From Candidatus Latescibacterota bacterium (lineage in GTDB: Bacteria > Krumholzibacteriota > Krumholzibacteriia > WVZY01): a stretch of DNA of 64,000 nucleotides. This document shows positions 29,360 to 48,817 of the stretch, in pieces. The position numbers and the translations under genes are program-made. Below the pieces are notes generated by a model. It ran no database searches, was not told the DNA's origin, and worked only from the letters and a program-made list of their open reading frames with translations. Within the stretch, counting starts at the first letter, position 1. Each line of letters starts with the position of its first letter. The stretch spans positions 32,001-96,000 of the forward strand of contig CAWBQK010000002.1 of assembly GCA_963791045.1 (NCBI GenBank). Reading direction: 5' to 3'.

Positions 29360-30719
29360 CTAGGTGAGCTCCTTTCTCAACTGAAGAATCGTGGCCTTCA
29401 ACTGCACGTCGGCGGCCATTTTTTCTTTTATCTTTTGAACCGCGTGAATGACGGTTGTGTGATCACGCCCACCAAAATGCTGTCCGATTTGAGTCAGCGA
29501 ACAACTAGTAAGATCACGCGCGAGATAGATAGCTATCTGTCTCGGATAAGCGTACGCGGCCGTGCGAACCTTTGATTTCATCGCGTCAACAGGGATGCGA
29601 TAGTGATGGGCAGTGACCTTTTGTATGATAGCAATGCTGGTTTTCTTGGGTTGGTGTGTGATGAAGTCTTTAAGGATCTCTTTGGAGGATTCCAAAGTGA
29701 CGTCTTCGTTATACACACTTGCGTGGACCAGCAGCTTCACAAGACTGCCCTCGAGTTCTCGAATGTTGCTCTTAACATTGTCGGCGACAAACTCGAGTAC
29801 CTCGTCGGGAATCGGCCGCTTTTCTTTTTCAACTTTTTTCTTCAAGATCGCAATACGCGTCTCGTAATCCGGGGGTTGAATGTCGGCAATAAGGCCCCAT
29901 TCAAAACGGGACCGCAGACCTTCTTCGAGTGTCGGGATCTCCTTGGGAGGACGATCGCTCGTAAGAACGATTTGCTTTTCGGCGCCGTGAAGCGAGTTGA
30001 AGGTGTGGAAGAATTCTTCCTGGGTACTTTCCTTGTTTGCCAGAAACTGGACGTCGTCGATGAGTAGCACATCGACATTGCGGTATTTCTGACGAAATTC
30101 TTGACTTTTGCCCGTACGAATGGAAGTAATGAGCTCGTTCATGAAGATTTCCGCTGAGCTGTAATGAACCTTGATACCCGGTTTGGCGTCCAGTAGGTAA
30201 TGGCCGATGGCCTGCATAAGATGTGTTTTGCCGAGGCCCACCCCGCCATAAATAAACAGGGGGTTGTAGACCTTGGCCGGTTTTTCGGCAACAGCAACGC
30301 TGGCCGCGTACGGCATCCTGCTGTTGTTGCCCTGGACAAATTCTTCAAACAGGTATTTGGGGTTTAGCGGCTCCCCACCATTCCCGTTCCTTCTCCGTGG
30401 AATCTGCACCACCGGAGGGGCTACCCGCCTCTGTGGAATTTCACCGCCGAACGCCGTTGGTGTGTTTAAAAAACACCGACGGTTCCCGGCCGATCAATTC
30501 CTCGAAGACGTAGCAGACCTTATCCTTGTGGTGTGCCTCAACCCAATCCATGGAGAATTTACTGGGGCATTCGATGGTTACGCTGTCGTCTTCTATCGAC
30601 GACAGGCGCATCGGCTTGAACCAGGTCTCGAGGGTCTGTTTGGTGACCATCGTACTGACTCGCGTCAAGAAGTCCGCCCATATCTGGTCGTAGGTCCCGC
30701 CTGAAGGGTGGATGGACAT
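29360..30719 (-). CDS. dnaA: Chromosomal replication initiator DnaA (frameshift in the domain II linker)
   Basis: ETWFKP; YNPLFIYGGVGLGKTHL; LLIDDVQF; NIRELEG; FGGRDHTTV. Confidence 0.95.
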
Positions 30720-30858
30720 CGTTGAAGCCCTTTCGTGATTTAAGCGAACCATCGCTGGGGACACTCCTCCGTTGGGCGGTGCCCCGGCCCTCTAACAAAA
30801 TTCCTGTGTCGGGAAAAAAACCCGCCACTCTCGACAAAGCAAGCAGGTTGTTCAGCGC

Positions 30859-40663: not shown

Positions 40664-41440
40664 ATGGGGAAAATAGTAGCAATAACAAATCAAAAAGGCG
40701 GGGTCGGCAAGACGACAACGGCGGTCAACCTGTGCGCGAGCCTGGCCGCGGCGGAGAAACCAACTCTGCTCGTCGACATGGACCCCCAGGCCAACGCGGG
40801 GTCGGGACTCGGTGTCGACAAACGAACGCTCGAGACAACCGTCTACGAAGTACTCCTCGATGACACGCTGATCGACGAGGCGATCATCGAGACGTTGCTT
40901 CCACATCTCTGGCTTCTGCCCGCCAACGCACGTCTGACGGGAGCGGAAGTCGAACTCGTCGGGCATGAAGGCCGCGAATTCAAGTTGAAGAAAGCGCTCG
41001 AGAAAGTCAGAGACCGTTACGAGTATATCTTTATTGATTGCCCGCCAAGTCTCGGGCTTCTCACACTCAACACCCTGTCCGCCGCCGATTCGATTCTCAT
41101 ACCGGTGCAGTGCGAGTACTACGCGCTCGAGGGCCTGGGACAACTGCTAGAAACGATTAAGCTCGTGCAGGCCCGGCTCAATCCCAAACTCGAGATCGAG
41201 GGCGTTCTGCTCACGATGTTCGACCGCCGGCTCAACCTGGCGCGCCAGGTTGTCGAGGAAGCTTCCGATTACTTCGGGGACAAAGTGTACGAAACGATTA
41301 TTCCGCGGAATGTCAAACTGGGAGAGTCCCCCAGTTTTGGCAAACCGATACTTCTGTACGACGCCCAGTCTCAAGGGGCGCAAACATATCTACGTCTGGC
41401 AAGAGAGGTGATCAGCAGTGTCGAAGAAAGCGTTGGGTAA
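40664..41440 (+). CDS. parA: Chromosome partitioning ATPase ParA/Soj
   Basis: [39 protein letters not shown]. Confidence 0.96.
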
Positions 41441-42278
41441 AGGGCTGGATGCCCTCATACCTCAAGGGGTTATGGAGACGCTCGATTCCGAGAAGGTTCA
41501 TCATATCCCCGTCGGCGAGATCCGGGCCAACCCGCAGCAGCCGCGAAAGCGATTTGACAAAGAACGAATTCGATCGCTCGCCGAGAGCATTCAGGCCGAT
41601 GGAATCCTCCAGCCGGTGGTGGTCCGCCAGCGCGGCGAGCACTACGAACTCATCATGGGGGAACGTCGGCTCCAGGCCGCGCGCCTTGCCGGCGCTCAGA
41701 CGATACCCGCGATTCTACGCCCGGTTGAAGAGGCCGATGCCCTTCGTCTCGCGCTGGTCGAGAATTTGCAGAGGGAAGATCTCAACCCCATCGAAGTCGC
41801 CGAGGCGTACAAGGCGCTTGTCGACAAGTTCGGGCTGTCCCAACAGGAACTCTCGGGGCTCGTCGGTAAAGATCGGAGTTCGGTGGCCAACACGCTGCGG
41901 CTTCTCGCTTTGCCCGAGGAGATCCGGACGATGATCGTCGACGAGAAGATCAGCGAAGGGCACGCTCGAACATTGCTGGCGCTTTCGACACGCGCCGAGC
42001 AGCTTGCTCTGGCCAAGCGAATCGTCGAGAAACAATTGAACGTTCGGCAGACCGAGCTGGAAATCGGAGAGCGTCGTGAAAAACCGGCGAAGGGTAAGTC
42101 GAAGAAGGATAAGCCGGCGCACATCACGCTGCTCGAAAACGCGTTCTCGCAGCACCTGTCAACACGGGTGTCGATCGACGAGAAGCGCGGCGGAAAAGGA
42201 AAGATTGTGGTCGAGTTTTACAGCCACGACGATTTTGAACGGCTGGCGACACTCATGGAGATACCGCTTCCGCGATAA
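41418..42278 (+). CDS. parB: Chromosome partitioning protein ParB/Spo0J
   Basis: [35 protein letters not shown]. Confidence 0.96.
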
Positions 42279-43078
42279 TGAAAAAGTACCTGTCACTTAT
42301 CGTCGCACCGCATGACAACGCGAATGTTCGAAACTACAAGATTTCGTACAGAATGTTGTACGCCCTTGGCGTTGTGATCGTGTTGTCCGTTGTGGTCCTG
42401 GTGGTTCTTACCATCGCGTACAGCCGTGTCCTTGTCAGGGCACAGCAAGCCGAGAGGCTTGTCGAGAGCAACGAGAGTGTCGTTATTCGAAAATCTGAAA
42501 TCGACTCGCTCAGGGTCGAACTGGTTCGGCTGCAGACCATGGGGATCCAGATCAAGAACATGATGGGTGTAGGATTGTCCGCTGAGGACAGCTCGCTGGT
42601 CGCTAATTTGTCGCCCATCGCCAAGTCTCCGGCCATTTCAGGCACGTTTGAGACGGCCGATGCGACGGCTGCGCAACAAAAGCTTTTGCTCAAAGCGATT
42701 CCATCCATGTGGCCTGTAAAAGGTTACGTCACCAAAGAGTTTCACGTGACCGGTGGCGAGAAAAACGAGCACTTCCACCCGGGCATGGATATTGCAGCCA
42801 CAAGAAATACACCGGTTCGAGCGTCCGCTGAAGGTGTCGTAATCACGAGCGGTTGGGATGAGATTTACGGGTATTTGGTCGTCATCGATCACGGTTTTGG
42901 GATTTCGACGGTCTATGGTCATAACACTCGTAATCTTGTTAGCGTAGGCGACCGGGTTGCCAGAGGGCAGACAATCGCTTTTCTGGGGTCCACCGGGAAA
43001 AGCACTGCTCCACATCTCCACTTCGAGGTGAAGAAAAACGGTGTGCCCGTGAATCCGAGAGATTACTTGCTCAACTAG
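42278..43078 (+). CDS. M23 family metallopeptidase
   Basis: TM helix plus coiled coil; HPGMD, YGHN, STAPHLHFEV. Confidence 0.92.
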   Translation: MKKYLSLIVAPHDNANVRNYKISYRMLYALGVVIVLSVVVLVVLTIAYSRVLVRAQQAERLVESNESVVIRKSEIDSLRVELVRLQTMGIQIKNMMGVGLSAEDSSLVANLSPIAKSPAISGTFETADATAAQQKLLLKAIPSMWPVKGYVTKEFHVTGGEKNEHFHPGMDIAATRNTPVRASAEGVVITSGWDEIYGYLVVIDHGFGISTVYGHNTRNLVSVGDRVARGQTIAFLGSTGKSTAPHLHFEVKKNGVPVNPRDYLLN

Positions 43079-43164: not shown

Positions 43165-43605
43165 ATGTTTGGTAAGGAAGCAGATAGCCTCGGCGGCGGC
43201 GGAGGCGAAGGCAACCTCAACTCGATTCTCGGCCCAGGGTGCAAGGTTAAGGGCACAATCGAAATCCAGGGTACAATTCGGATCGACGGAGATTTTGACG
43301 GCGATATCAAATGCCCCGATACTCTTATCATCGGCAAGTCGGGTGTTGTCAAAGCCAACGTGACGGTCAAAAATGCTGTCATCGGTGGCAAGCTGCTTGG
43401 AAATATCCAGGCGAGCAACAAAATTGAACTTCAGACCGGCTCGCATGTCGAAGGCGACATCCAGACCACACGTCTGGTAATCGATGAGGGTGTGTTCTTC
43501 GAGGGTAGCTGCAAGATGGGTCAGGCAGCGACAACGTCGTCGTCACAGCGCCCGTCCTTTGAAAAAGAAACCAAGAAAGAGCTCGAAAAAGAGGCCGTTA
43601 AATAG
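43165..43605 (+). CDS. Bactofilin (polymer-forming cytoskeletal protein)
   Basis: SILGPGCKVKGTI...RIDGDFDGDI...LVIDEGVFFEGSCKM. Confidence 0.93.
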   Translation: MFGKEADSLGGGGGEGNLNSILGPGCKVKGTIEIQGTIRIDGDFDGDIKCPDTLIIGKSGVVKANVTVKNAVIGGKLLGNIQASNKIELQTGSHVEGDIQTTRLVIDEGVFFEGSCKMGQAATTSSSQRPSFEKETKKELEKEAVK

Positions 43606-43635
43606 CCTGAAGAGCAGGGATCGCCAGAAGAAAAC

Positions 43636-43674
43636 AAGGGGGCCGCGGTTTTGTATACCCGCAGCCCCCTTTTG
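43636..43674 (+). terminator. Intrinsic terminator after bactofilin
   Basis: AAGGGGGCCGCGG...CCGCAGCCCCCTT followed by a T-run. Confidence 0.7.
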
Positions 43675-43729
43675 CTTGCCCGTGACGCACACGAGTCGAC
43701 CGCAACAGGGGCCGCATTCCGGCAGCAAA

Positions 43730-43891
43730 TCTGCCACAATCCAGCCAGGGTTAAGTTCAGCGCACCAAATTTTGTCCACAATTGGCCGCACGGGTGTTGA
43801 TAAAGTGCCCTGCTCTGTGGAAAACCCCTAATTATATGCGTAGCAAGGAGATGGGCGGTTGGGGGTGGTGGCCGTTTCGGGCTTTTCCACA
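43730..43891. promoter_or_regulatory. Distal DnaA-box cluster
   Basis: TTGTCCACA 43772, TGTTGATAA 43795, TGTGGAAAA 43816, TTTTCCACA 43883, weaker TCTGCCACA 43730. Confidence 0.7.
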
Positions 43892-43998
43892 AATCACCCC
43901 GGGGTATTCGGCTTATCGTATAGTTTCAAAGAAGATAAGGTGCGCCGTTTCAACCAGCGACGCACCTCCCTGAGATTACCCTTTGATATTTAATAAAA

Positions 43999-44026
43999 TG
44001 ATGCCCTCGCACGGAGGACGAAATCA
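43999..44026 (-). promoter_or_regulatory. Putative SECIS for the C-terminal Sec
   Basis: TGAT-TTC-GTCCTC-[CGTGC]-GAGGGC-ATCA; loop GU at +21/+22. Confidence 0.7.
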
Positions 44027-44248
44027 GACGCCTCAGGTTCCCCCGAACCCGATGGTGACCTCACCCTCATCAATAATCACGGGGACGTCACGCCGTCCAT
44101 CTGTGTAACGGAGCATCTCCTCGAGCGCTTGTGGATCCTGCTTGACATTCCTGTAGTCAACAACGACGTTTCGCGATGCGTAGTCCTCACGGGCCGCAAC
44201 AGTGTAGGGTCATGTGTCTTTGCCAAATATCATTACTCTGCTGGTCAT
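44024..44248 (-). CDS. Glutaredoxin-like selenoprotein with two Sec (UXX-star type), 74 aa
   Basis: Manual translation: MTSRVMIFGKDT-U-PYTVAAREDYASRNVVVDYRNVKQDPQALEEMLRYTDGRRDVPVIIDEGEVTIGFGGT-U-GV*. TGA at 44210-44212 and 44033-44035; GAGG RBS. Confidence 0.9.
44177..44198 (-). promoter_or_regulatory. Putative SECIS for the N-terminal Sec
   Basis: TGCG-G-CC-[CGTGA]-GG-A-C-TA-CGCA; loop GU at +20/+21. Confidence 0.5.
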
Positions 44249-44297
44249 TGTTCCACGCCTCGTTTTTTTGTGTTACCAGGTGCTTTAGTTCGGACTC

Positions 44298-44498
44298 GCC
44301 GCGGGTGGCGGCTCACGTTCTGGGTTGTTGAAGTTTCTGAAAATGACACCCCGCACTTCGCTTCGCTCGCCGATGGGGCCCCCGGAGCGGCGCAGCGTTA
44401 GCGAGTACGCGCGGGCTTACCATCAGGCCACTGAAGCATCTGAGCTGAACACCCCGCACCTCGCTTCGCTCGGGGTGATCGATGACAGGACCCGCGGC
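44298..44498 (+). repeat. Dispersed palindromic repeat family, longest copy with two insert modules
   Basis: 9-bp terminal IR GCCGCGGGT/ACCCGCGGC; modules at 44310-44368 and 44414-44471. Confidence 0.87.
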
Positions 44499-44619
44499 CA
44501 AGAAAACGGTTAAAGCGCCGCGGGTTTTTCCCGCCGGACTCGTCACAACGCAACGAGGATAGATGACGCGGCTGCAAATTGGCAAGCGAACAATCGAAAG
44601 CAACAATTTCGGCGAATGG

Positions 44620-44628
44620 TGGTATAAT
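44620..44628 (+). promoter_or_regulatory. Extended -10 promoter for the moxR operon
   Basis: TG-G-TATAAT. Confidence 0.5.
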
Positions 44629-44705
44629 TCATGGGGCTTCGGCGCCGGCCGATGCCTTTCTTATAAAAAGTCCGATACGCCCACTCTCAAAGAGGAATCG
44701 ATCGA

Positions 44706-45701
44706 ATGACAGATCAGAACCAAAAAATGGCGGATGTCGAAGAGATCAAACGATTCAACCGCGGGTACGAAAAGATCCGGGGCGAGATCGGCAAGGTTAT
44801 TGTCGGGCAGAAGTCGGTTGTCGAAGAGTTGATGATAGCGCTTTTCGCCGGCGGGCACTGCCTGGTGGTCGGCGTGCCGGGTCTTGCCAAAACACTTCTT
44901 ATCTCGACCGTGGCCAAGGCTCTCGAACTAAAATTCTCCCGCATCCAGTTCACGCCGGACCTCATGCCGTCGGATATTACGGGGACCGAGATCCTCGAAG
45001 AGGAGACCGGGACCGGTAAGAGGACCTTCAAGTTCGTCAAGGGTCCGGTCTTCGCCAATGTCGTCCTCGCCGACGAGATCAACCGGACACCGCCAAAAAC
45101 ACAGGCGGCGCTTCTTCAGGCAATGCAGGAGCACGAGGTGACGGCGGGAGGCGGCACGTTTGGCCTGGAGCTTCCGTTCTTTGTCCTCGCGACGCAGAAC
45201 CCGATCGAACAGGAAGGGACATATCCGCTTCCGGAGGCGCAGCTCGACCGGTTTATGTTCCATATCAACGTGGACTACCCGACTGAAGCCGAAGAACTTG
45301 AGATTGTCGAAACCACGACCTCTAGAGTACCGGAAGAACCCTCGGTCGTTTTGAATGCGGAAGACATTCTTCGTATCCAGCAAATCGTAAGAACGGTTCC
45401 CATCTCGAGCCACGTTCTCAACTACGCGATTCGTATCGTCCGCGCGACGCGCGACGGGGCGTCCGGCGCCGTAAAAGATTACGTGAGTTGGGGCGCCGGG
45501 CCGCGTGCGGGACAGCACCTCGTTCTGGGCGCCAAAGTCCGCGCGATCATGCATGGGCGTCCGACGCCGAGCCTGGATGACGTGCGCATGATCGCACCCC
45601 CGGTCCTCCGGCACAGAATCGTTACCAATTTCAATGCGGATGCCGATGGCGTGACGACCGACCAGATCGTCAAGACACTGCTCGACGAGGTTCCCGAGTA
45701 A
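44706..45701 (+). CDS. MoxR family AAA+ ATPase
   Basis: GVPGLAKT, RIQFTPDLMPSD, ADEINR, ATQNPIEQEGTYPLPEAQLDRF. Confidence 0.95.
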   Translation: MTDQNQKMADVEEIKRFNRGYEKIRGEIGKVIVGQKSVVEELMIALFAGGHCLVVGVPGLAKTLLISTVAKALELKFSRIQFTPDLMPSDITGTEILEEETGTGKRTFKFVKGPVFANVVLADEINRTPPKTQAALLQAMQEHEVTAGGGTFGLELPFFVLATQNPIEQEGTYPLPEAQLDRFMFHINVDYPTEAEELEIVETTTSRVPEEPSVVLNAEDILRIQQIVRTVPISSHVLNYAIRIVRATRDGASGAVKDYVSWGAGPRAGQHLVLGAKVRAIMHGRPTPSLDDVRMIAPPVLRHRIVTNFNADADGVTTDQIVKTLLDEVPE

Positions 45702-45748
45702 AACCCGCCCCACGCACCGTCACAACGAACTAACAAGAGGCTTTTCCG

Positions 45749-46695
45749 GTGGCGCGAACAAAACGACAGGCCGTCAACAAATACCTCGATCCAGCCGTGG
45801 TGAGCCACCTCGGCAACATGGAGCTCAAGGCGCGGCTGATCGTCGAAGGGTATATCGCCGGTTTGCACAGAAGTCCCTACCACGGGTTTTCGGTGGAGTT
45901 TGCGGAGTACCGACAGTACATGCAGGGCGATAACACACGCCACATCGACTGGAAGGTGTACGGGAAGACCGACCGGTTCTACATGAAAGTGTTCGAGGAA
46001 GAGACGAACCTCCGCGCCACGGTGATTCTCGACAAGAGCGGCTCGATGGGGTTTGCGTCACCGGCATCACAGACGGCGAAGGTATCCAGCACGACCGGCG
46101 TCGAGATCGACAAGCTCACCTACGGCGGGCTGCTCGCGGCGAGCCTCTCGTATCTCATGATCCGGCAGCAGGATGCAGTAGGGCTTTGCCTCTTCGACGA
46201 ACAAGTCCGCGCGCTTACCGCGCACCGGGCGGTGCGAAAACATCTCTTCTATCTCTTGAGTTCGCTGGAAAGGTCGAACCCGGTGCGAAAACACAAATCA
46301 GCCCGGCGCTCCACCATATCGCCGAACGGATTAAACGGCGTGGGCTCGTGATACTGATTTCTGATCTGATGGACAACCCGGAAGACGTTCTCATGGGACT
46401 AAAGCACTTCCGGCACCGCGGACACGAGGTGATTGTTTTTCATCTCCTCGATCCTCGTGAAATCGACCTCGATTACCGCGACGAAGTCGAGTTTCAGGAT
46501 ATGGAAACCGGACGCAAGCTTCGCGTTGAACCGGCTTTCTTGAAGGAAGAGTATTCGCAAAACATACGAGCCTGGATCGACATGCTGGACCGCGGGTGTA
46601 AATCCCACCAGATCGACTACAACCTGCTTTCGACGCACACACCGTTCGACCAGGCCCTGACTGCCTACCTGAACAAACGTGTTCGATTGACCTGA
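45749..46695 (+). CDS. DUF58 domain protein (frameshift near 46270)
   Basis: GLHRSPYHGFSVEFAEYRQY, IDWKVY, EEETN; C-terminal part in ORF 46186-46695. Confidence 0.9.
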
Positions 46696-46705
46696 GGACA
46701 GCGAC

Positions 46706-48817
46706 GTGCTTGGTTTTGGATTTTTGAACAGCCTGTTTCTCATCGGTCTTGGGGCGATGGCGCTTCCCATTGTGATTCATATCCTCAACCGGCGCCGGCT
46801 GCGCAAGATCAAGTTCAGCTCGCTCGATTTTATCTACGAACTCAACAAGCGGCGGATGAGCAAAGTCAATTTCCGCCGGTGGATCATCCTTATTCTTCGT
46901 ACCCTCGCGGTCGTTTTTCTCGTGCTCGCGTTTGCGCGGCCGACCATCCAGAGCAACGCCTCGTTCTTTATGCCCGGCGAGGCCCCCAAACACGTTGTGA
47001 TATGTCTCGACGCGAGTTACAGCATGAGCGCCGAGCATGAAGAGGGCACCGCCTTCACCATCGCGCGCGATCTCGCCAGGCAGGTGGTTGACGAATGCCA
47101 CCAGAACGACCTCGTCAATGTTGTCGTTTTCGCCGACCGCACCGATGTTCTCTTCGAAGCGGGAACGCGGAACAAGCAGCTCGTCCGGGGCGCTCTCGAC
47201 GAACTCACCGTCACCGCCGAAGGCACCTCGATTCCCGGCGCCGTCGAGACGGCGGTCGAACTGCTCGGCGAGTCCGAGATCGCGACGAGCGAGATTTATG
47301 TCATTTCGGATTTCAGGGAAGGCGCGGATTCGTTGGGCGGATTCGAACCGCCGGAGAATACACGCCTTATCTTTCTTCCCACGGACAGAGGGAACATTGA
47401 CAACGTCAGTATCGATCGGGTGTTCACTCCGCGAAAGCTGATCCGGCCGGGGGAAGTCATTCGGATCGGTGTGGCGATGACCAACCACTCCCGCGAGCGC
47501 GCCATCGACTTTCCGCTCGAACTCTCCGTCGACGGCAAGCGGCTCGCCGAGAAGATCGTCACGCTCTCACCCGCCTCGTCGGTCACCGAGACATTCGTGA
47601 TCTCGATCGCGGACTGGGGATCGCACAGATGCCGGGTGGCAAAAAACCGGGACAGACTCCCCCTCGATGACGATCGGCACTTTGTCATCGAAGTCTCGAG
47701 AAAAATTCCAGTCACAATCATCCGCGGAAGGAAGTTCGCCCCGGGGAGCGATTCGGATCCGGCCGCCGCGTATTTCTATATAGACAAAGCGCTCAACCCG
47801 CGCGGCGCCCAGGGCGGCGAGTTCAGCGTGAACGTGATCGACCAGAACGCGCTCACGGCGGCAAGCCTGCCGGGTAACGGTGTTGTTGTGTGGACCGATC
47901 CGCGGGAGATGGACTCGAGGCGTCTCGATTTGTTGACGCGGCATGTGTACGGCGGAGGCGCGATGTTGGTGTTTGTCGGCGGCGATCGGAACGACCTGTG
48001 GCAGGACGAAGGTTTCAGGCGTCTCCTTGGTGTCGAGCGTCTGACCGCCAGGGACAAAAACGACGGTGTGCGGTTGGGGTCTTTTGCCGGTACACATCCA
48101 ATTTTTGAAATCTTTAACGAGGAAGAGCTGGAACTGCTTTCACAATCAAGTGTGACACGGTTTGCGGCGGGCTCGGGCGTCTCCCCCGACTCGATCCTCG
48201 CCTACTTCGACGGCGGGGCGCCGGCCGTTTGGGAAAACCGACACGGCCAGGGGAGGACGCTGGTTGTGGCGGCAAGCCCCGATCTCGCCGCCGGCAATTT
48301 GCCGCTTTCACCCATGTTCCTTCCGTTTGTTCACACGGCGGTGTCGTACCTGGCCACAGCCGGTCACACCGACCCCCGACGCGAGAATCTCGTGGGCGAC
48401 GATTTGTATTTTGATCTCACGCCGAGGTGGGCGGCGCTCTCGACCCAGCTCCGCGTCAGGACCGAGACAAGGGACGCGACCGAACCCCAGCCGGACACGG
48501 CGCCTGTGTTGTTCGAATCGGGGCAGGGAGAGGTCAAGGCGATGGTGGCGCGTCCGCGTCACGTTGGGTTCTACACACTTATGGTGGACACCACGCGGAT
48601 CGCGCAGTCGTGCGTCAATGTCGATACGAGAGAATCCAATCTCAATGCCCGCGAGTTCGACGACAACGCGACCGCTGGAGCGCGGGTAATCGATGTGTCG
48701 GGGAATCTTGCCGAAGACCTTCGCCGCGAACGGCAGGGCCGCGAAGTTTTTGCCGCCTTTTTGCTCCTGGCGCTATGTGCGCTTGTCGCCGAAGCGATTC
48801 TCGGCAGGAAAGCGTAG
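46706..48817 (+). CDS. BatA domain / vWA membrane protein
   Basis: LPIVIHIL..F SSL..LRTL..LAFARP; MIDAS DASYSM; C-terminal TM helix. Confidence 0.88.
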   Translation: MLGFGFLNSLFLIGLGAMALPIVIHILNRRRLRKIKFSSLDFIYELNKRRMSKVNFRRWIILILRTLAVVFLVLAFARPTIQSNASFFMPGEAPKHVVICLDASYSMSAEHEEGTAFTIARDLARQVVDECHQNDLVNVVVFADRTDVLFEAGTRNKQLVRGALDELTVTAEGTSIPGAVETAVELLGESEIATSEIYVISDFREGADSLGGFEPPENTRLIFLPTDRGNIDNVSIDRVFTPRKLIRPGEVIRIGVAMTNHSRERAIDFPLELSVDGKRLAEKIVTLSPASSVTETFVISIADWGSHRCRVAKNRDRLPLDDDRHFVIEVSRKIPVTIIRGRKFAPGSDSDPAAAYFYIDKALNPRGAQGGEFSVNVIDQNALTAASLPGNGVVVWTDPREMDSRRLDLLTRHVYGGGAMLVFVGGDRNDLWQDEGFRRLLGVERLTARDKNDGVRLGSFAGTHPIFEIFNEEELELLSQSSVTRFAAGSGVSPDSILAYFDGGAPAVWENRHGQGRTLVVAASPDLAAGNLPLSPMFLPFVHTAVSYLATAGHTDPRRENLVGDDLYFDLTPRWAALSTQLRVRTETRDATEPQPDTAPVLFESGQGEVKAMVARPRHVGFYTLMVDTTRIAQSCVNVDTRESNLNAREFDDNATAGARVIDVSGNLAEDLRRERQGREVFAAFLLLALCALVAEAILGRKA

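Follow-up and report, generated by a model that had tools for sequence, protein, structure and literature searches.

The minus strand of the window (the whole 64,000-nucleotide stretch of Candidatus Latescibacterota bacterium DNA that was analyzed) most probably encodes, at 44024..44248, a 74-residue glutaredoxin-like selenoprotein of the catalogued UXX-star family 1, in which selenocysteine (Sec) is inserted at each of two in-frame UGA codons. We place the probability of this reading at roughly 92%. The coding sequence was delimited by its frame, the match to the NCBIfam model NF041114, the Pfam match, and the fold; it starts with an ATG at 44248-44246 and includes a TGA stop codon at 44026-44024. 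A Shine-Dalgarno-like GAGG (44258..44261, minus strand) was found 9 nt 5' of the ATG at 44248, and the aligned Met start was common to the window gene and its relatives in the same taxonomic family. The first in-frame TGA (codon 13; 44210..44212, minus strand) occupied the Grx active-site position in the context ...IFGKDT-U-PYT..., and the second (codon 72; 44033..44035, minus strand) was located three residues from the C-terminus in the context ...IGFGGT-U-GV-stop. The true stop followed the second Sec codon by 6 nt, and the minus strand at 44035-44024 thus read TGA-GGC-GTC-TGA, the "UXX-star" ending of Sec, two residues, and stop. The cis-Pro motif DVPVI was encoded by codons 54–58, between both TGAs, and U13 and U72 were the sole Cys/Sec residues of the translated protein. 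The ribosome-binding site, the two TGAs, and the cis-Pro motif had been pointed out in a preliminary description of this DNA, and direct reading of the strand reproduced them. The gene had also been described as hidden and absent from the open reading frame (ORF) track; the mechanical ORF list indeed held nothing of at least 40 aa in the frame running from 44248 to 44024 on the minus strand, and ordinary gene callers would therefore miss it.

Comparison with NCBIfam profiles, performed on the protein with U read as C, assigned the window protein to NF041114, the equivalog "UXX-star selenoprotein family 1". The match covered profile positions 1–70 of 70 (118.2 bits, with the cut-off at 72; E = 1.3e-34), which all but excludes a chance frame, and it bore out the assignment to the UXX-star type of double-Sec glutaredoxin-like genes made from the sequence beforehand. 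With the same model, the window gene scored 103.6 bits in a six-frame genome search. The parent subfamily NF041212 was also matched above its cut-off (95.9 bits vs 66), and the Pfam Glutaredoxin model PF00462 gave 44.2 bits. UXX-star families 2 and 3 (NF041211 and NF047338) and the HUGP/GUXX-star fusion (NF045501) have the same Grx-like core and a near-C-terminal Sec, but the window protein scored only 50.9, 52.1, and 59.8 bits with these models, below their cut-offs of 100, 97, and 325, and it lacks the HUGP domain of the fusion selenoprotein. The models of classical proteins stayed far below cut-off, with 37 of 90 bits for TIGR02181 (Grx), 38.2 of 88.55 for TIGR02196 (YruB), and 20 of 85.75 for TIGR02194 (NrdH).

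Structural prediction from a 24-row alignment yielded an AlphaFold model with a pLDDT of 81.3 and a Grx-type beta-alpha-beta-alpha-beta-beta arrangement (E4-9, H14-25, E29-34, H39-49, E57-60, and E63-66) without a C-terminal helix. The tail (residues 70–75) had a pLDDT below 50, and the rows of the alignment were gene calls ending at TGA-72, so that the model does not bear on the U13-U72 distance. The modelled and aligned window protein carried one artefactual last residue (the translated true stop), which left the conclusions unaffected. Among solved structures, the best Foldseek matches were the small glutaredoxins 7c12/7c10 (TM 0.72), followed by BC3987 and NrdH, and a phmmer search of PDB sequences again placed 7c12/7c10 at the top (E 1e-5). 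The window protein is thus modelled as a minimal glutaredoxin/NrdH-type thioredoxin fold devoid of the usual C-terminal helix. It shares with the classical Grx/YruB/NrdH proteins (7c10/7c12 cGrx1, 3grx Grx3, and 1h75 NrdH) the thioredoxin/Grx fold (TM 0.68–0.72), a nucleophile position at the N-terminus of helix 1, and a cis-Pro before strand 3 (VP-V). It differs from them in having U-P-Y-T in place of CPYC, CGFS, or CVQC and in the missing C-terminal helix.

Absence of the Sec machinery from the genome would have been at odds with the double-Sec assignment; selA (460 bits), selB (374 bits), and selD (373 bits) were all found above their cut-offs. A tRNA-Sec was found at C18:158792-158887 (66 bits vs a gathering score of 47), for which ARAGORN gave the anticodon tca. 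The selD gene (locus L010, G000:C6:361456-362382, plus strand) itself contained one in-frame TGA in the context ...CAG-U-AAK..., which we take to be the Cys/Sec active-site position of SelD, and the SelD of the source genome is accordingly predicted to be a selenoprotein in its own right. About 700 nt 3' of the tRNA-Sec gene, a translation-GTPase-like match (L007, C18:159590-160189, plus strand) was observed, with 66 bits to the selB profile over positions 3–190 and one in-frame TGA.

Two in-frame TGAs within one short gene could also arise under an alternative genetic code (table 4 or 25) in which TGA specifies an ordinary amino acid. However, eight conserved neighbouring genes contained 0 internal in-frame TGAs and one of these neighbours, DUF58, ends in TGA; TGA elsewhere in the source genome is an ordinary stop. 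Moreover, the TGAs of the window gene aligned with Cys rather than with Trp or Gly, and tRNA-Sec, selA, selB, and selD were present, so that we give a reassigned code next to no weight.

The homologs showed Cys or Sec at both TGA positions. Among the 23 of 77 database relatives that were aligned, Cys was present at position 13 in all 22 that covered it. At position 72, the sole aligned homolog reading on (P0071; L063) had Cys in the context ...GGA-C-G-V-stop, and a TGA was found in genomic loci. When the genomes of relatives were searched in six frames with NF041114, 11 of 41 were above the cut-off, and all 11 had two TGAs inside the match. These double-TGA genomes span nine genera, all of the taxonomic family of the window. 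Their 11 loci uniformly read T-U-[P/G/H]-Y-T at the first position and U-[G/A]-[V/I]-stop at the second, the true stop being TGA in seven, TAA in three, and TAG in one.

A scan of species genomes located 80 further loci in other phyla (Acidobacteriota, Deltaproteobacteria/Anaeromyxobacter, Brocadiales, Woeseiaceae, and others). Parsing by pattern succeeded for 61 of these, the remaining 19 being outside the counts, and gave 29 loci with TGA at both positions, 31 with TGC/TGT followed by TGA, and one with TGC followed by TGC. Position 13 was accordingly TGA in 29 and TGC/TGT in 32, a ratio skewed towards Cys because one of the two scan patterns demanded Cys-13 and thereby under-samples Sec forms, and position 72 was TGA in 60 and TGC in one. 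The true stop of the parsed loci was TAG in 26, TGA in 25, and TAA in 10, and the last two residues were GV in 53 of 61. Every parsed relative had Thr or Ser at position 16, as the parsing pattern itself required. The Cys-13/Sec-72 form was found, for example, on the chromosome of Anaeromyxobacter oryzae Red232 (L066).

These data also bear on whether the window gene is a decaying glutaredoxin gene, in which two Cys codons turned into TGA, or a chance frame that is not translated whole. TGC and TGT are each one step away from TGA, ORF lists lack the gene, and the source genome is an incomplete draft (21 contigs, 80.9% complete, 5.8% contamination). Nevertheless, both TGAs were kept in the 11 genomes of nine genera and in 29 loci of other phyla, the conserved residues were intact on either side of the TGAs, the RNA constraints described below track the TGAs, and the Sec machinery of the genome is complete. 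We therefore regard decay or a chance frame as extremely improbable.

Within the phylum, the distribution of the gene was narrow. In a 208-genome sample, some of whose genomes are incomplete, 10 of the 12 other genomes belonging to the taxonomic family of the window carried the gene, and the six-frame profile search of 195 genomes from the phylum's eight remaining families gave 0 hits. The nearest relatives of the window gene, with up to 71% identity, belong to other phyla. This confinement to one family within the phylum sample, combined with nearest relatives in other phyla, suggests that the family of the window acquired the gene laterally. One relative within the set (G005; L031) had the same protein sequence as a public Candidatus Krumholzibacteriia bacterium record (L036).

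The preliminary description had placed a hairpin after each TGA. Hairpins are present at both sites, with their support coming from relatives rather than from single-sequence stability. A search with Rfam gave 0 matches in 43700-44600, and hence none to a bacterial SECIS model. For UGA-13, a candidate intra-CDS SECIS element (SECIS 1) was assigned to 44171..44199 (minus strand), corresponding to nt +14 to +42 from the U of the UGA, with a core, GCCCGUGA, at 44194-44187 (+19 to +26). The codons after UGA-13 encode the conserved residues A-A-R-E-D-Y, so that nucleotide conservation alone is weak proof, and the Cys forms served as a control. The Ala codon six codons 3' of position 13 was GCC in 40 of 40 TGA forms (29 loci of other phyla and 11 of the window's own family) vs 9 of 32 Cys forms, and the next Arg codon was CGT in 36 of 40 TGA forms vs 3 of the 29 Arg codons of Cys forms. 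After deduplication, C21 was present in 36/36 Sec vs 9/31 Cys forms and U24 in 33/36 Sec vs 3/31 Cys forms; because the sequences are related, this synonymous contrast is not a tally of independent events. Positions 19–26 read GCCCGUGA in Sec forms, and its G23 and U24 presumably have the same spacing as the loop bases that SelB recognizes in E. coli fdhF.

Evidence for a helix at this site was mixed. The alignment of 11 genomes gave a structure of six pairs, of which one, the outermost, covaried (GC in five, UA in three, CG in one, and unpaired CA in two). With 36 Sec forms and 31 Cys forms as input, ungapped RNAalifold returned no consensus structure for this first element. After UGA-13, Sec forms did not fold more stably than Cys forms did (mean MFE -12.0 vs -13.95 kcal/mol), and the single-sequence fold did not exceed dinucleotide shuffles in stability (z = +1.0 to +1.5). 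We take the constraint after UGA-13 to be real and of SECIS type, with the helix as a candidate.

For UGA-72, covariation and position across relatives defined a second hairpin (SECIS 2, GUCCUC-CGUGC-GAGGGC) in the 3' UTR at 44003..44019 (minus strand), whose stem begins 17 nt after the U of UGA-72 and 4 nt after the true stop. RNAalifold on the MAFFT alignment of 11 genomes predicted a 6-pair hairpin with compensatory changes in five of the six pairs. Among 70 distinct sequences, a perfect stem of at least 6 bp was found between +10 and +48 in 63, compared with 35% of composition-matched shuffles, and the stem started at +13 to +20 from the U of UGA-72 in 69, with 65 different 5' arms. The loops were G-rich (GGC in 13, GGUC in 9, CGUGC in 9, GUC in 7, and others). 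The single-sequence fold, by comparison with dinucleotide shuffles, was not stabler (z = -0.5 to +0.3).

The true stop had been described as embedded in the lower stem of this hairpin. Such pairing is possible in the window, where four additional pairs (UGAU/AUCA) could enclose the stop (-9.4 vs -8.7 kcal/mol), but across the family the stop lies upstream of the conserved stem and was paired downstream in just 28 of 70 MFE folds. The embedding would therefore be a local option of the window sequence and not a property of the family.

The same region could be read more simply, with TGA-72 as the real stop and the hairpin as a plain intrinsic terminator, which would leave a 71-residue protein with Sec-13 as its single Sec. 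The window hairpin at 44019-44003 fits the terminator pattern because the U-rich tail AUCAUUUUAU follows its stem, and 22 of the 23 aligned database homologs have gene calls that terminate in GFGG(G)T, right at the TGA-72 position. Beyond the window, however, 0 of the 60 sequences of other phyla and 2 of the 10 of the window's family had a U-tract 3' of the hairpin, and the narrow range of stem starts and the recurring loops (GGC, GGUC, CGUGC, and GUC) also speak against plain termination. The coding layout points the same way: two sense codons ([GA][VI]) and then a stop follow TGA-72 at all 11 loci from the window's family and at all 61 parsed loci of other phyla, although the parsing pattern required this layout in the latter, and the curated profile, matched over its whole length, runs through these positions. 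The Cys form also continues past position 72 to its own stop, and the Cys+Cys homolog had a stem of just 4 bp at the hairpin position (n = 1). We therefore consider a stop at TGA-72 very unlikely. The scarcity of U-tracts and the short stem of the Cys+Cys homolog indicate that the 3' hairpin is tied to UGA-72 and not to termination; in the source genome, the window hairpin may serve also as a transcription terminator.

In the double-Sec reading, SelA, SelB, SelD, and tRNA-Sec of the source genome would decode both in-frame UGAs as Sec. UGA-13 would be served by the intra-CDS RNA element with its core GCCCGUGA 19–26 nt downstream, and UGA-72 by the G-rich-loop hairpin in the 3' UTR. Translation would end at the true stop, 6 nt past UGA-72, because this codon is presumably too near the hairpin to be recoded. 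In the protein, U13 at the N-terminus of helix 1 would coincide with the site of the nucleophilic Cys of glutaredoxins and act as the nucleophile, and U72, on the flexible Gly-rich tail GFGG-T-U-G-V, would be its resolving partner. Since Thr replaces the resolving Cys of CxxC (U-P-Y-T) and the protein has no other chalcogen, U72 would be the only resolving partner available. The two residues would form a U13-U72 diselenide in the window protein and a selenenylsulfide in Cys-13 relatives. We judge the assignment of nucleophile and resolving partner in such a diselenide relay, which would resemble the C-terminal arm of thioredoxin reductase and which the preliminary description had also proposed, to have about even odds.

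Animal thioredoxin reductase carries a C-terminal Gly-Cys-Sec-Gly arm, and fish SelL contains a UxxU diselenide. The former resembles the window protein in bearing Sec on a flexible Gly-rich C-terminal tail, which would likewise shuttle to the active site, and the latter provides a precedent for a diselenide redox pair; both have folds unrelated to that of the window protein and depend on eukaryotic 3'-UTR SECIS insertion, a different system. Closer in fold, the clostridial selenoprotein Grx (UxxC; Kim et al. 2011, as cited in the excerpted text of review PMC13188914) similarly has Sec at the first active-site position, but there it is the one Sec and a CxxC-type resolving Cys is kept, whereas the window protein has Thr at that place and a second Sec on the tail.

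A different function is conceivable for the same gene, whose identity would be unchanged: the U13 and U72 selenolates might chelate a metal or metalloid rather than relay electrons. The protein would then bind a soft ion such as Hg, As, Cu, or Cd, or else some species of selenium or sulfur, and work as a carrier or detoxifier. Metal binding is suggested as an alternative role in the excerpted text of the same review. Chalcogens at a helix N-terminus combined with a flexible tail would suit chelation, and both the classical CxxC and the C-terminal helix of glutaredoxins are missing. Against this, the protein keeps the cis-Pro as well as the active-site position of the Grx type, no metal-resistance or transport gene adjoins the gene in the window (its neighbours being ParA, ParB, M23, bactofilin, MoxR, DUF58, and BatA/VWA), and no gene of either kind is among the commonest neighbours in other phyla. 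Chelation is in our view a serious possibility that falls somewhat short of even odds.

The genomic context was examined in the window and across the family. In coordinate order, the gene is preceded by the plus-strand genes of ParA (40664-41440), ParB (41418-42278), an M23 peptidase (42278-43078), and a bactofilin (43165-43605). On its other side lie a MoxR AAA ATPase (44706-45701), divergent from the selenoprotein gene, DUF58 (45749-46351) and BatA/VWA (46706-48817). The latter three, at 44706-48817 on the plus strand, constitute an "aerotolerance"-type gene row divergent from the selenoprotein gene. The recurrent neighbours in the window's family were MoxR, upstream at 11 loci and at a median distance of 218 nt, and bactofilin, at 10 loci. 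The commonest neighbours in other phyla were a 4HBT thioesterase, ThyX, peptide deformylase, an MBL-fold protein, and a LolA-like protein. No neighbour conserved across phyla was found when the loci of the family were compared with those of other phyla, and the context therefore gives no functional clue.

The intergenic stretches flanking the gene are 43606-44023 (418 nt) and 44249-44705 (457 nt). The flanking ORFs at 43484-43831 (plus strand), 43521-43892 (minus strand), and 44313-44606 (minus strand) had no Pfam match. The last of these, of 97 aa, was regarded as spurious, because the 218-nt median gap between MoxR and the gene in the window's family leaves no space for it in relatives.

The gene had also been described as lying near oriC. 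Geographically this is fair, with dnaA (~29360-30680, minus strand) ~13.3 kb away and parAB ~2 kb away; the proximity is probably incidental, as the neighbours in other phyla differ. The dnaA gene itself looks split over 29360-30764 (minus strand) into two ORFs in different frames. A 107-aa ORF (30441-30764) that ends in TGA holds the N-terminal domain (profile 1–85), and a 350-aa ORF (29360-30412) holds the rest (profile 100–437). Either a frameshift within the linker or an error of the draft assembly might account for the split.

The window gene is of an already known kind, and its recognition is correct without being a discovery, because NF041114 is a curated model and the two-Sec form is tabulated in the excerpted text of a review from 2026 (PMC13188914). 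There, "Distant Grx-like protein 1" corresponds to UXX-star family 1, with the motif UxxT and two Sec, and UXX-star family 2 is listed with one Sec and the motif GxGU. The window gene agrees with family 1, as described in these excerpts, in U-x-x-T, in a Sec three residues from the end, in the number of Sec residues, and in the full-length profile match, and shows no substantial difference from it; its local details are a TGA as the true stop and a U-run after the 3' hairpin. The same excerpts credit Zhang & Gladyshev 2008 and Haft & Tolstoy 2025 for the UXX-star family; in Zhang & Gladyshev 2008, "Grx-like, UxxC" is present and the phrase "distant Grx" was not found. They also describe the function as uncharacterized, in accordance with the preliminary description.

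For genome annotation, the value of the finding is that gene callers omit genes of this kind or cut them at the C-terminal TGA; 54 of the 77 database homologs are 68 aa long. A cultured carrier, such as A. oryzae Red232 with its Cys-13/Sec-72 form, would open the biochemistry of the family to testing. The full combination for the window gene, namely a very low-potential U13-U72 diselenide relay, a hairpin acting as both SECIS and terminator, and opposite fates of two UGAs set by hairpin spacing, is a tentative and, taken jointly, rather doubtful proposal. If the relay were true, the diselenide would differ in its chemistry from the selenenylsulfide of Cys-13/Sec-72 relatives. Likewise, if the spacing were to decide between them, the two UGAs 6 nt apart, the first read as Sec and the second as stop, would provide a natural ruler for the spacing rule of bacterial SECIS elements.
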